From a bacterium (GTDB lineage: Bacteria; UBA10199; 2-02-FULL-50-16; JAJFLM01), in NCBI GenBank assembly GCA_965216315.1, contig CBDCFN010000016.1, positions 128,001 to 192,000 of the forward strand: DNA of 64,000 nucleotides, written 5' to 3'. The notes beneath the pieces are model-generated. The model was not told the origin of the DNA. It did not search any database and worked only from the letters and a program-made list of their open reading frames with translations. This document shows positions 8,235 through 14,033 of the stretch, in pieces. Each line of letters starts with the position of its first letter. Position 1 is the stretch's first letter. The translations under genes and the position numbers were made by a program.

Positions 8235-9570
8235 AATCTTAGATCTTTTCGATGCCGCCCTGAGCGAAAAATCCGGACCTGAAATCGAACACATTCTGTT
8301 AGCGGGACATACCAACAGCCAACGCGCGGTGTCCCTCTACGCAGGCAAGATCGATTCGGTCGAGATCGCGGATGAGATCAAGATCGGCGTGTGGCTGCGC
8401 ACCAAGGGCCGCTGGGGGTGTGCGACCTTGGAACAAGTCGAGGCCGAGGCGCTTGATCGCGCGATCCAGCAGGCCGTGCTCGCGGCGGAGTTTAGTGACC
8501 CGGATCCGGATTACAGTCTCGCGCCGCCGGAAGAGGTCGCGACCCATTACGAGCCGGATGCCGCGATTCTTGAATTGGGCATGGGGGATTTCGAGGAGAT
8601 TGCGCACCAGATGGAGCAGCAGGCGCAGGACACCTCGCCCTTGATCAAGAACATTCCGCGTATTGGGTGCGGCTCGTCGAGTCGCTCGCATGTGATTGCC
8701 AATTCCGAAGGGGTGCGCATCATCGAGCGGAACAATTTCTTGAAGGCCGGTCTCTCGGTCATGGCCTGCGGCCCGGACGAGCGCATGGTCAATTGTTATG
8801 AGATCAATTATTTTCCCGACCGTGCCTCGTTTGATCCGCAGGGAACGGTCGCGGAAGTCGCAGAGGAAGCGGTGGCACGCGTGGAACCGCGCGGCGTCAA
8901 GAACGGAACCTGGCCGGTGATCTTCGATGCGCGCACGGCGGCGCAATTGCTGAGTACGTTCTCGAGTTGTTTCAGTGGCGATGCCCTCTATCGCAAGTTG
9001 ACGCGACTTGAAGGCAAGTTGGGGCAACAGATTGCGAGTGAGATGGTGTCCGTTGCCCAAAAGAGTTTGATCGGTTTGGTGCGCCACGCCTATGACGCCG
9101 AGGGAACGCCTTGTCAGGATAAGTATCTTATCCACCAAGGGCGCTTTGAGACCTTCCTTAATAATAGATACACGGCCAAGCGGAATCAGATGGAGTCGAC
9201 GGGTAATGCCGACGGGGCGATCGGTGAGGCGCCGGGTGTCGCACCAACCAACTTCTACTGGGACGCGGACGGCGTACCGGTGACCAATCTCTATGAAGAG
9301 ATGGGGACAGGCATCCTTATTAAGGAGTTACACGGGGCCTCGGCCTCGCCGATTTCCGGGGACTTTTCTTATGGGGGGCTTGGGTATTGGGTCGAGAATG
9401 GGAAGATCGATCATCCTATTGCGGACTTTACCATCGCGGGCAACTTCTTTGACTTGCTCAAGAACATCATCGGGTTAGGGGATGACCTGCGGTTCGTCTC
9501 GCCGCATGCTTCCGGATCCTGTGGGGGGCGCTCCTTGTTCGTTAAGTCCTTGGCGGTTTCGGGGAAATAG
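8227..9570 (+). CDS. pmbA: TldE/PmbA subunit
   Basis: YDAEG, SGDFS, WVENGKI, TIAGN; lacks HExxxH; directly follows tldD. Confidence 0.9.
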   Translation: MGKILDLFDAALSEKSGPEIEHILLAGHTNSQRAVSLYAGKIDSVEIADEIKIGVWLRTKGRWGCATLEQVEAEALDRAIQQAVLAAEFSDPDPDYSLAPPEEVATHYEPDAAILELGMGDFEEIAHQMEQQAQDTSPLIKNIPRIGCGSSSRSHVIANSEGVRIIERNNFLKAGLSVMACGPDERMVNCYEINYFPDRASFDPQGTVAEVAEEAVARVEPRGVKNGTWPVIFDARTAAQLLSTFSSCFSGDALYRKLTRLEGKLGQQIASEMVSVAQKSLIGLVRHAYDAEGTPCQDKYLIHQGRFETFLNNRYTAKRNQMESTGNADGAIGEAPGVAPTNFYWDADGVPVTNLYEEMGTGILIKELHGASASPISGDFSYGGLGYWVENGKIDHPIADFTIAGNFFDLLKNIIGLGDDLRFVSPHASGSCGGRSLFVKSLAVSGK

Positions 9571-9637
9571 GCGTCTCAAAATGAGACTCTTTTCAATTTA
9601 AACCATTCTATTTATTTGAATTTTAATGACATTTATT

Positions 9638-9653
9638 TGGCATCCGAATTGCT
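9638..9653 (+). promoter_or_regulatory. Sigma-54 -24/-12 promoter for ORF6N gene
   Basis: TGGCATCCGAATTGCT; palindrome GTCTCAAAATGAGAC at 9573-9587 upstream. Confidence 0.7.
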
Positions 9654-9667
9654 AGTTATTAGCAATC

Positions 9668-10165
9668 ATGACCAAAAGTCTCACGAATATCGAGCAGTGG
9701 ATTTATGCAATACGAGGTCAGCGTGTCATTCTGGATGAGATATTGGCAGAACTCTACGGCATCGAAACAAAACGACTTAATCAACAAGTTCGGCGCAATA
9801 TAAAGAGATTTCCAGCAGATTTTATGTTTCAGCTAACGTCCAAGGAAAATGACTCTTTAAGGTCACAATTTGCAACCTTAAAGAAAGGTCGAGGAACGCA
9901 CCGTAAATACCTGCCTCTTGCCTTTACAGAACAAGGAATTGCCATGCTCTCCAGTGTGCTCAATACAGACAAAGCGATCCAGGTCAACATCGAGATTATG
10001 CGAGCCTTCGTGCAGATCCGCCGCATGGCCTCCTACCATCATGATCTGGCCGTCCAGATAGGGCGGCTTGAGAAAAAATACGATAGCAAATTTAAGGTCG
10101 TTTTTGAGGCGATTCGCAAATTGATGGAACCGCCACGGAAAAAATCACGGAAGATTGGGTTTTAA
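9668..10165 (+). CDS. ORF6N domain DNA-binding protein
   Basis: IRGQRVILD..LAELYG, RFPADFMFQL, AFTEQGIAMLSSVL, terminal KIGF. Confidence 0.92.
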   Translation: MTKSLTNIEQWIYAIRGQRVILDEILAELYGIETKRLNQQVRRNIKRFPADFMFQLTSKENDSLRSQFATLKKGRGTHRKYLPLAFTEQGIAMLSSVLNTDKAIQVNIEIMRAFVQIRRMASYHHDLAVQIGRLEKKYDSKFKVVFEAIRKLMEPPRKKSRKIGF

Positions 10166-10172
10166 AATCCAC

Positions 10173-10295
10173 TTCGACCTGCTCAAGAACATCATCGGCT
10201 TCGGCGACGACCTGCGTTTCGTCTCGCCGAGCGCCTCCGGTTCCTGCGGCGGACGTTCCCTCTACGTCAAGGCGCTGGCGGTGTCGGGAAAGTAG
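10173..10295 (+). repeat. pmbA 3'-end copy 1 (last 40 codons plus stop)
   Basis: Translates FDLLKNIIGFGDDLRFVSPSASGSCGGRSLYVKALAVSGK*. Confidence 0.95.
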
Positions 10296-10404
10296 GAAAG
10301 GCCCTTTTTCCCTTTATCGTTGCCCATGCCTTTAACCGTCCCAAAATGAAACCCTCCTTTGTGTCCTAACCAGCTAAGTCATTGAAATCTAAACAACACG
10401 CTTT

Positions 10405-10420
10405 TGGCACAGCCCTTGCT
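10405..10420 (+). promoter_or_regulatory. Sigma-54 -24/-12 promoter upstream of hicA
   Basis: TGGCACAGCCCTTGCT; IHF-like site near 10377 and GTCCCAAAATGAAAC at 10338-10352. Confidence 0.7.
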
Positions 10421-12380: not shown

Positions 12381-12385
12381 CTTCT

Positions 12386-12421
12386 ATTATAAGTTGCTGC
12401 TAATATTAGTCAAGACTAATA
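12386..12421 (-). promoter_or_regulatory. Sigma-70-like promoter with palindromic antitoxin operator
   Basis: Minus strand TTGACT-N16-TATAAT; palindrome TATTAGTC-AA-GACTAATA at 12404-12421. Confidence 0.6.
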
Positions 12422-12446
12422 CTTTTATTCTTGTTGAAAATAGCTA

Positions 12447-12462
12447 AGCAAATACGATGCCA
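12447..12462 (-). promoter_or_regulatory. Sigma-54 -24/-12 promoter upstream of higB-like toxin
   Basis: Reverse complement TGGCATCGTATTTGCT; IHF-like site near 12479. Confidence 0.65.
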
Positions 12463-12575
12463 AGGTCGAAAAGAACGTAAGTGGTTGAAATCAGGGGTGT
12501 GAGTACTTATGAATGAGCGTTGCCGAGTCCGAGAATGCGACGACGCCGTCTCATTTTGGCTTCTATCGCTGCGCG

Positions 12576-12643
12576 GGTGAACTGCGCTTCGTCTCACCGA
12601 GTGCTCTCTCTACGTCAAGGCCTTGGCAGTTGCGGGAAAGTAA
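12576..12643 (+). repeat. pmbA 3'-end copy 4 (degenerate, about 20-nt internal deletion)
   Basis: GELRFVSPSA // LYVKALAVAGK*. Confidence 0.88.
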
Positions 12644-12839
12644 GGACGGTCAACGGCTAAAGGCAAACGTTGTTCCTTGCACACTCGTCTTCTCCTTCCT
12701 TTGATGTCACGAACTGTGATTTCAAAGATTAGTAAGGCACCTCTTGACAATCGGCAAAAATATCGGCAATAATACTATATATTTACGGCCTAATTCCCTT
12801 ATAATATGTTGAAATAATTGATAAATATAGAGATATCAG

Positions 12840-14033
12840 ATGGGCAAAAATATAGGCAAAAGTGAGCCGGTTTCATTGATGGAACCGATGATGCCGGCAG
12901 AGGGGTGCCGGGTGCTCGAGGACTTGGCGGTGGAACTGACGGAGCGGTCCCACCGTTTGGCGGGGCATATTCATCCTGTGGTGCAGCGCTCCGTCGGTGA
13001 CTTGGTGCGTGCAATGAATTGCTATTATAGTAATTTGATTGAAGGGCATGACACGCATCCCCGCGACATTGAGCGCGCTTTGGCGCAGGATTTCTCCACT
13101 CAACCGGAACAACGTGAACTGCAATTAGAGGCCAAGGCTCACATCGAAGTTCAGAAGATGATTGATGAAGCCCCTGCGAACGCACAGCTCATGTCGGTGG
13201 ATTATATTTGTTGGCTGCATCAAGAATTTTGCAGGCGTCTTCCAGAGGAAATGTTGTGGGTGGAAGATCCCGATACCAAAAGAAAGATCAAAGTGGTTCC
13301 TGGTGAGTTGCGGAATGAAACCGTCACAGTCGGCCGACATATTCCGCCGCGCCCCGAGCATCTTGGCAAATTCATGGCCCGATTCGAAGAGGCTTATCAA
13401 CCGGATCGACTCTCTAAGTTGAAGCGGGTCCTCGCTGTGGCGGCCTCTCATCATCGCCTCTTGTGGATTCATCCTTTTTTTGATGGCAACGGACGCGTCA
13501 CGCGGCTGCTTTCTTATACCTATTTGAAATATATCGGACTCAGTAGCGGCCTTTGGTCGGCGTCTCGAGGACTGGCGCGCACGGTTAGTGAATATCGGAC
13601 GCGCCTTGAAGCCGCCGATAGCGCGCGCGCCGGTGATTTAGACGGTAGAGGGAGTCTCTCCTTGCAAGGCCTCGCGGATTTCTGTCGCTACTTTCTAAAG
13701 ACTTGTATCGATCAAGTCGAATACATGGGGGGATTGCTCGATCCTACTGAATTCTTGAGACGGGTACAAATATTCTGTGAAGAAGAGGAACATGCGGGTC
13801 GGCTTCCCAAGCGATCTTTTCAATTGCTCCGTGAAGCTTGGCTGGTGGGCACGTTTGAAAGAGGGCGTGCTCTAGAACTGACAGGTTATGGTCAGCGTCA
13901 GGCACGAACCGTTCTCAACGAATTAGTGAAACAAGGGTTATTGACTTCGGATACGCCGAAAGGACCAGTCCGCTTGAACTTTCCAATCCACGTTGTTGAA
14001 CGTTGGTTTCCTAACCTTTATCCGGTTACCTAA
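12840..14033 (+). CDS. Fic family protein with C-terminal wHTH
   Basis: HPFFDGNGRVTR catalytic motif; SNLIEG inhibitory-type motif. Confidence 0.93.
   Translation: MGKNIGKSEPVSLMEPMMPAEGCRVLEDLAVELTERSHRLAGHIHPVVQRSVGDLVRAMNCYYSNLIEGHDTHPRDIERALAQDFSTQPEQRELQLEAKAHIEVQKMIDEAPANAQLMSVDYICWLHQEFCRRLPEEMLWVEDPDTKRKIKVVPGELRNETVTVGRHIPPRPEHLGKFMARFEEAYQPDRLSKLKRVLAVAASHHRLLWIHPFFDGNGRVTRLLSYTYLKYIGLSSGLWSASRGLARTVSEYRTRLEAADSARAGDLDGRGSLSLQGLADFCRYFLKTCIDQVEYMGGLLDPTEFLRRVQIFCEEEEHAGRLPKRSFQLLREAWLVGTFERGRALELTGYGQRQARTVLNELVKQGLLTSDTPKGPVRLNFPIHVVERWFPNLYPVT

Follow-up and report, generated by a model that had tools for sequence, protein, structure and literature searches.

Integrative elements related to ICESt1 dock at the 3' end of fda in Streptococcus thermophilus, and chromosomal integrons, like the integrase-less attC clusters called CALINs, form arrays of small cassettes rich in toxin-antitoxin (TA) genes. 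Tandem accretion of integrative elements and cis-mobilizable elements (CIMEs) is described for streptococci (PMC5704250). At the ssrA gene of Dehalococcoides, the account in PMC3146451 places 15 islands without an integration module between repeats of the ssrA end and regards them as possibly cis-mobilizable or as fixed remnants. In the tycheposon islands of Prochlorococcus, older elements are displaced outward by successive insertions and partial tRNAs stay behind, according to the description of these islands in bioRxiv 10.1101/2020.12.28.424599. Here we analyse a locus in a 64,000-nt stretch of bacterial DNA (the window, C16:128001-192000 of a 2.96-Mb genome of 16 contigs that is 98% complete), and all coordinates are positions in this window unless a contig is named. 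In it, the intact gene pmbA is followed by four direct, diverged partial copies of its own last 68-193 nt, with small toxin-antitoxin and stress genes lying between or after them. We lean towards reading this array as the decayed product of serial insertions at the pmbA end.

Repeated pmbA ends behind an intact gene

The resident pmbA (8227-9570, forward strand) is a housekeeping protease gene of 447 codons whose product carries all three PmbA/TldD domains of Pfam and the NCBIfam PmbA assignment. The repeated target is the last ~190 nt of this gene, called tail0 below, and the orphan ends t1 to t4 all follow on the same strand. An earlier note, made from the letters alone, had reported that the pmbA end recurs four times in direct orientation, and both a repeat finder and BLAST confirm it. 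The repeat finder pairs pmbA 9447-9571 with 10172-10296 (79%), 11062-11186 (62%) and 11618-11742 (78%), and 9379-9567 with 11550-11738 (82%); a 63-nt repeat family includes 12605-12667. In BLAST against the whole 2.96-Mb genome the resident end matches t3 at E = 2e-51, t1 at 9e-25 and t2 at 3e-11, and t4 matches t2 at 1e-7 and t1 at 5.5e-5.

Tail t1 (10172-10295) keeps 40 codons in frame, without frameshift, and the stop TAG at 10293-10295; t2 (11093-11185) keeps 30 codons in frame and the stop TAA at 11183-11185. The 63 codons of t3 (11550-11742) encode a protein 89% identical to the resident end, and because of one extra base near the end of this tail its frame runs on to 11750, with the stop shifted to 11748-11750. 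The copy farthest from pmbA, t4 (12576-12643, stop TAA at 12641-12643), has suffered a 22-nt internal deletion and a frameshift. Right edges all coincide with the position of the pmbA stop. Left edges, as already noticed, fall at different points, about 193 (t3), 123 (t1), 93 (t2) and 68 nt (t4) before it, and the original ones could have been erased by later deletions. The stretch common to all copies is thus only the last ~68 nt, inside which the exact blocks measure 10-14 nt. The farther a copy lies from pmbA, the more it is damaged: the frame is kept in t1 and t2, a 1-nt insertion is present in t3, and t4 combines its 22-nt deletion with the most degenerate copy of the element H described below. 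The earlier observation that an intact pmbA is retained and that cargo units lie between the tails also stands, and direct repeats of the 3' end of a target gene that bound units behind the intact gene are what tandem arrays of integrative elements and CIMEs display.

Differences between the copies fall mostly at third codon positions. Counted by codon position 1/2/3, they amount to 5/2/19 between the native end and t1, 7/3/13 between the native end and t2, 3/4/26 between the native end and t3 and 4/2/16 between t1 and t2, so that the third position holds 19 of 26, 13 of 23, 26 of 33 and 16 of 22 differences, respectively. Between tails, 43-55% of the third codon positions differ. The dN/dS ratios are 0.05 (native-t1), 0.12 (native-t2), 0.056 (native-t3), 0.077 (t1-t2) and 0.17 (t1-t3), with dS ranging from 0.49 to 1.45; low ratios are thus seen also between two orphans and not only against the resident end. 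Since the differences are mostly third-position changes and dN/dS stays at 0.05-0.17 at a dS of ~0.5-1.45, the orphan tails are once-functional pmbA ends, as the earlier note had proposed, and most of their divergence arose inside working pmbA genes of different lineages. In protein sequence the tails match the resident end at 75-89% identity, and the best orthologs found reach 63-80% over the tail; the sources of the tails were therefore closer kin than any genome compared. We looked for a break in third-position GC content in the resident pmbA end, a mark of a foreign substitute, and saw none. The GC content of the array (0.38-0.58, against a genome mean of 0.51) is not telling.

At the nucleotide level the resident end is 74-82% identical to t1-t3, and the last 12 codons that it shares with t4 are 72% identical. 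Its longest exact matches with t1, t2, t3 and t4 are 19, 19, 15 and 8 nt, so the resident end and the orphans lack the uninterrupted identity that Campbell-type homologous exchange requires. Between two orphans, t1 10251-10282 and t2 11141-11172 form a 32-nt exact block in tails that are otherwise ~75% identical. This block represents a patch of gene conversion or else a shared core and looks like the sole place where a homologous deletion, namely of the HicAB unit, would be feasible.

Repeated gene ends are also known from polymorphic toxins of the Rhs/CdiA type, whose orphan cassettes encode variable toxic tips, each followed by its cognate immunity gene. Such orphan C-terminal cassettes do not fit the array, as the tails encode the conserved PmbA C-terminus (75-89% identity, dN/dS at most 0.17) and no variable tips.

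Element H, the joints and the cargo units

Beyond what the earlier note had described, t1, t2 and t4 remain homologous downstream of the stop, in an element of ~60-100 nt, a purine-rich run followed by a pyrimidine-rich run, which we call H and which also stands in front of two tails, t2 and t3. Its five copies all lie on the forward strand. H1 (10296-10345) is partial, its left arm missing, with a repeat match of 88% over 25 nt. H2 (11028-11092) joins t2 directly, and the ~9 nt before it resemble the very end of pmbA. The longest copy, H3 (11186-11285), has the purine-rich arm and then the pyrimidine-rich arm and forms a long hairpin. H4 (11455-11548) is 78% identical to H3 and joins t3 directly, with ~8 nt at its left edge that again resemble the pmbA end, and H5 (12644-12710) is a degenerate copy after t4. 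The 8-9-nt resemblances are too short to prove, and if they are real there may be six modules of a pmbA end plus H, two of them without cargo after them. Directly after the resident end, a small, plain terminator-like hairpin (9573-9587) takes the place where no H is found.

Because H3 and H4 are 78% identical while 43-55% of third positions differ between tails, H looks constrained, which suggests a conserved element-borne sequence rather than neutral filler. Its structure is less regular: as folded DNA, H3 reaches -20.9 kcal/mol (z -2.46), H2 (z -0.49) and H4 (z -1.42) are unremarkable, and the consensus fold is weak (-6.9 kcal/mol). H matches no Rfam family, the four hits to miRNA hairpins being below threshold and due to chance. 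Whole-genome BLAST finds H and the tails nowhere else in this genome, and among 92 other genomes of the class there is no credible copy of H, only purine-rich matches of 19-37 nt in four of them. The attC sites of integrons are imperfect palindromes whose outer core motifs are conserved. In the array no attC-type site was recognised, and by inspection the outer ends of H, a weak palindrome, do not appear to carry such motifs.

The joints of the array fall at differing positions in both partners, namely between the ORF6N stop and t1, between H2 and t2, between H4 and t3, and between the higB promoter region and t4. The columns at which H2 breaks off against t2 and H4 against t3 are not the same, and no boundary is common to all joints. 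We also noticed a 98-aa open frame (11454-11750) that begins in H4 and reads in frame into t3, matching Pfam PF19289 at E = 4.8e-14. Automatic annotation will list it as a short PmbA-like protein; most likely it is a scar and not a gene.

As for the cargo, the earlier note had read the units as ORF6N, hicAB, a four-helix-bundle remnant, a higBA-like pair and Fic. Pfam upholds the ORF6N, HicA, HicB, HTH antitoxin-like, Gp49/HigB-like and Fic assignments, while the four-helix-bundle identity of the remnant finds no support. The first unit holds a forward-strand gene for a 165-aa ORF6N-domain protein (9668-10165; PF10543, E = 1.2e-34) whose stop lies 7 nt from t1. It is followed, behind t1, by hicA (10483-10704, PF07927) and hicB (10685-11026, PF15919/PF05534), both on the forward strand and preceded by a promoter-like site at 10452-10479. 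The remnant (11286-11454, reverse strand) is a frameshifted short gene whose translations match no family, neither in Pfam (E up to 10) nor in NCBIfam, in a genome search with PF05635 or in the PDB. Between t3 and t4, an HTH antitoxin-like gene (11747-12046, PF01381) and a Gp49/HigB-like toxin gene (12048-12380, PF05973) lie on the reverse strand, opposite to the array, and have a promoter-like site (11 of 12 matches) at 12413-12386. The last unit encodes a 397-aa Fic-domain protein (12840-14033, forward strand, PF02661) behind a promoter-like site at 12744-12773 (11/12); no pmbA end follows fic, and a convergent gene ends at 14038. Promoter-like sites thus precede hicAB, higBA and fic (9-11 of 12 matches), and the unit sizes are 725, 890, 556 and ~900 nt.

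Origin of the array

We consider that serial site-specific insertion of elements carrying substitute pmbA ends, followed by deletions, has a somewhat better than even chance of being the history of this locus, which would make it a decayed, CIME-like accretion array. The pmbA end would be, or would have been, the attachment site for a family of integrative elements, each bringing a substitute pmbA end, mostly followed by H, the latter acting as a family-specific arm beside the substitute. Insertion would fuse the substitute to the gene so that pmbA stays whole, and the old working end would be displaced downstream as an orphan. Through repeated gene-proximal insertion, a stack of no fewer than four and perhaps six or seven units would then have built up, the oldest farthest out. 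The recombinase and transfer parts of the units would later have been lost by deletion, with roughly one event per unit; each such deletion would have started behind the gene that was kept and reached into the orphan end that follows. What is left would be self-promoted addiction or stress genes (HicAB, the HigBA-like pair, Fic and ORF6N) and 5'-truncated tails, toxin-antitoxin pairs being retained by addiction. The array is probably now largely fixed.

The functional history of the tails matches the expectation for displaced ends and for substitutes brought in by elements and therefore supports serial insertion. Their divergence is too high for routine homologous crossover, and site-specific recombinases need only a short core, which favours site-specific insertion. 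Polar accretion at the gene predicts decay that rises with distance from pmbA, as is seen along the tails, and secondary deletions would yield joints at differing positions. The conserved H beside the tails, the classical integrase-bearing islands at tRNA genes of the same genome, one of which carries related cargo, and the published cases of tandem accretion also speak for this history. From these features we infer insertion at a specific site, the type of recombinase that would have carried it out, and the loss of recombinase genes by deletion.

Several observations weigh against such a history. The tails appear to have no common left boundary or demonstrable core, so that about one deletion per unit is needed, and the two short pieces H2 and H4 must have survived between the presumed deletions. 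The earlier note was right that the window holds no integrase or transposase: no such family is found among the 66 open reading frames (ORFs) scanned in it, and none of the five PF00589 and three PF00239 hits of the genome falls inside it. Recombinase genes, whole or fragmentary, are absent from the units and from their immediate neighbourhood, and no cognate recombinase was found elsewhere, none of the genome's recombinases being linked to pmbA-like sequence. In the relatives searched, no intact element was found at pmbA. When the pmbA tail was searched in them, as the earlier note had suggested, tblastn with the last 99 residues found one pmbA end in each of 10 loci, no extra end and no array, and no recombinase was present among the 43 ORFs downstream of pmbA in five of the relatives' loci. 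The 63-aa tail has a match in 59 of 93 genomes of the class, and frames below 120 aa occur only in this genome (three) and in G001 (one, at a contig end). All the evidence, finally, comes from a single genome.

The earlier note had instead proposed that circles made of a tail plus its cargo enter and leave by a homologous single crossover in the pmbA end, with no dedicated recombinase. A Campbell-type insertion by one crossover does give an intact gene followed by a 5'-truncated direct copy, the window is free of recombinases, and the 32-nt exact block in otherwise ~75% identical t1 and t2 suggests some homologous exchange or conversion between copies. However, homology extends over just 68-193 nt, at 74-82% identity and, for the resident end and the orphans, with exact runs of no more than 19 nt, t1 and t2 alone sharing 32 nt. 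In RecA-dependent recombination such a diverged substrate should be orders of magnitude less efficient than identical sequence. The proposal also leaves unexplained the H copies in front of t2 and t3 and the origin of the first circle, and we hold it to be unlikely. Neither does the label integron-like, given in the same note, fit well. Integron cassettes are mostly promoterless and co-oriented under a common promoter, whereas here units have promoters of their own, one is inverted, and the tail starts and H/tail joints lie at different positions. A related possibility is a living, integron-like platform anchored on a core gene, in which the small units are complete and the pmbA end plus H is the site of a recombinase encoded elsewhere or unrecognised. 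The uniformly tiny units, each one intact module with its own promoter, would suit it, as would the conservation of H above the synonymous-site level on both sides of t2 and in front of t3, the two H-to-tail joints without cargo that look like empty sites, and the presence of recombinases on the small unplaced contigs C3, C7 and C12. It is at odds with the inconstant boundaries of the tails (-193, -123, -93 and -68) and of H, cut at different columns, with the weak folding of the H family (consensus -6.9 kcal/mol, z from -0.5 to -2.5), with the absence of H and tails from the rest of the genome and from 92 other genomes of the class, and with the damage to t3 and t4. No excised or unit-skipping form is present in the contigs of four public sequencing runs, although contigs cannot show rare forms. 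We find this platform as improbable as the crossover proposal. Its more specific version, in which the last pmbA bases plus H are the working site of an unrecognised trans-acting recombinase that shuttles self-promoted toxin-antitoxin and stress cassettes of 0.5-1 kb without attC or a local integrase, is slightly more doubtful still.

It could also be argued that pmbA ends of several co-occurring strains were joined in one contig, by strain collapse or misassembly. The source is metagenome-like, the run depth is low (about 2.4-17), and the 28-32-nt identity of t1 and t2 makes the graph ambiguous for the HicAB unit. We compared the contig with unitigs from the four runs (two samples of one study, possibly the source, and not independent of the assembly). 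These unitigs reproduce every junction and break only at the t1/t2 identity. Those of X1 run from tail0 through ORF6N into t1 (9364-10280), from t1 through HicAB into t2 (10253-11170) and from t2 through Fic (11143-14200). These separately built sequences bridge all pieces at equal depth in X1 (3.67, 3.8 and 3.76), and the same pieces occur in X2. Moreover, the tails are cut at different points and fused to unrelated cargo, which a collapse of full-length alleles would not give, so that an artefact is very improbable. A lone listed joint from 8943 to 11559 (21 nt on its shorter side, with 450 unrelated letters between) was set aside as belonging to another organism. The probability that remains goes to mechanisms beyond those considered here. 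Serial site-specific insertion followed by deletion stays the reading that we prefer.

Genomic surroundings and known systems

Directly upstream of pmbA lies its core-genome partner tldD (6846-8234, forward strand; Pfam PmbA_TldD domains 1-3, NCBIfam TldD), which is 65-80% identical in the relatives' loci. Among 41 relatives searched with pmbA, 26 gave a match, with orthologs 46-58% identical and the closest pmbA at 58%. Beyond tldD-pmbA no synteny was seen in the nine loci compared, and no relative examined carries such an array. In the tblastn search of the 10 loci, the tldD paralog was matched in 8 and nothing else fell below E = 0.1. Other short frames in the class-wide tail search measure 155 aa (G080) and 258 aa (G058). 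The pmbA of G001, split between two contig ends inside the tail, was considered as a repeat-induced break and dropped, the G001 contigs holding no further tail copy. In a distant relative (G031:C34, 7332-8380), genes for PIN and MazF-like toxins follow pmbA at a distance of 3-4 kb, without an extra pmbA end. In wider collections, two of the 80 pmbA-like loci listed from genome contigs exceed 40% identity, and metagenome contigs gave four loci at 46-56%. Only two short proteins among 5.8 billion match the tail, both on ~1-kb contigs. Of 44 plasmid records, all partial matches, the 10 listed match only fic or ORF6N; the phage collection gave no match to the array, and no viral contig shows the tail pattern.

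The five PF00589 hits of the genome are two XerC/D-sized proteins, integrases beside tRNA-Gly and tRNA-Asn, and a fragment on C3, and the three PF00239 hits lie on C7, on C12 and beside tmRNA. The small unplaced contigs C3, C7 and C12 (6-11 kb) may be mobile elements or plasmids; C3 has the fragment of a tyrosine recombinase, and C7 and C12 contribute frames of 212 aa (resolvase type) and 525 aa (serine recombinase). The earlier note had called for a genome-wide scan for other duplicated gene ends, and among 234 nearby repeat pairs of the self-BLAST a gene end repeated more than once downstream occurs at pmbA only. The self-comparison reveals two tRNA islands, at tRNA-Asn and tRNA-Gly, of the classical type with integrases. 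At the tRNA-Asn island (C16:1039598-1053853), the two copies of a perfect 222-bp direct repeat are 14 kb apart, and with an inner copy of 77 nt there are three att copies; genes of housekeeping appearance are found from the inner to the outer repeat. Its cargo comprises a 402-aa integrase, an AbiEi/nucleotidyltransferase (AbiE-like) pair and a 508-aa Fic protein. The AbiE-like pair and Fic of this island show that islands with an integrase do transport cargo of this type in the genome.

Apart from the array, an 86-nt direct repeat (641-726 and 1199-1284, 98.8% identical) lies inside a sulfur-assimilation cluster, one copy at the start of a JAB/Mec-like gene and the other just upstream of a ThiS/CysO-like gene. 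It matches no Rfam family at E ≤ 0.1 and may be a shared leader or regulatory RNA.

If the accretion reading holds, pmbA joins the genes at which integrative elements dock, in a "Deltaproteobacteria"-like lineage that has hardly been sampled; in a single full-text search, pmbA scarcely occurred together with "genomic island" and "integration site". The array would also illustrate the extent to which islands can be reduced, since what is left are single addiction modules flanked by gene-end scars, which mimic a recombinase-free cassette array. Annotators should be warned that short PmbA-like ORFs are most likely scars here. The array would be a compact natural record, through synonymous divergence and the decay gradient, of the order and age of insertions, and H is a candidate recombinase-binding or insulating sequence. 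Should the units be shown to move, the locus would become a new kind of gene-capture platform.

Among the systems to which the array can be compared, CALINs share with it small, toxin-antitoxin-rich cassettes without a nearby integrase. The pmbA array differs from them in that no attC-type sites are recognised, promoters belong to the units, one unit is inverted, and part of a housekeeping gene, not a structured attC, serves as the repeat. Streptococcal CIMEs, as presented in PMC5704250, resemble the array in having the 3' end of a protein gene as target, direct end repeats, an intact gene, lost integration genes and newer elements beside older ones. Compared with them, the pmbA array has no integrase in its units or neighbours, units of only 0.5-1 kb and H after the stop, and its repeats are 68-193 nt long, 18-26% diverged and ragged at their starts. 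The Dehalococcoides ssrA islands, in the account of PMC3146451, likewise form many tandem islands behind a single-copy gene, each closed by a 3'-end repeat. In contrast to the pmbA array, their target is tmRNA, their repeats are uniformly 20 nt long and have a defined point of insertion, and 16 islands carry a large serine recombinase. Serial integration at one site, partial target copies and degenerate remnants are shared with the tycheposon islands, whose targets, unlike pmbA, are tRNAs and whose active elements contain tyrosine recombinases, as described in bioRxiv 10.1101/2020.12.28.424599. Set beside these systems, the pmbA array would add a new docking gene to a known process, of which it is an unusually pruned case, and would not amount to a new kind of system.

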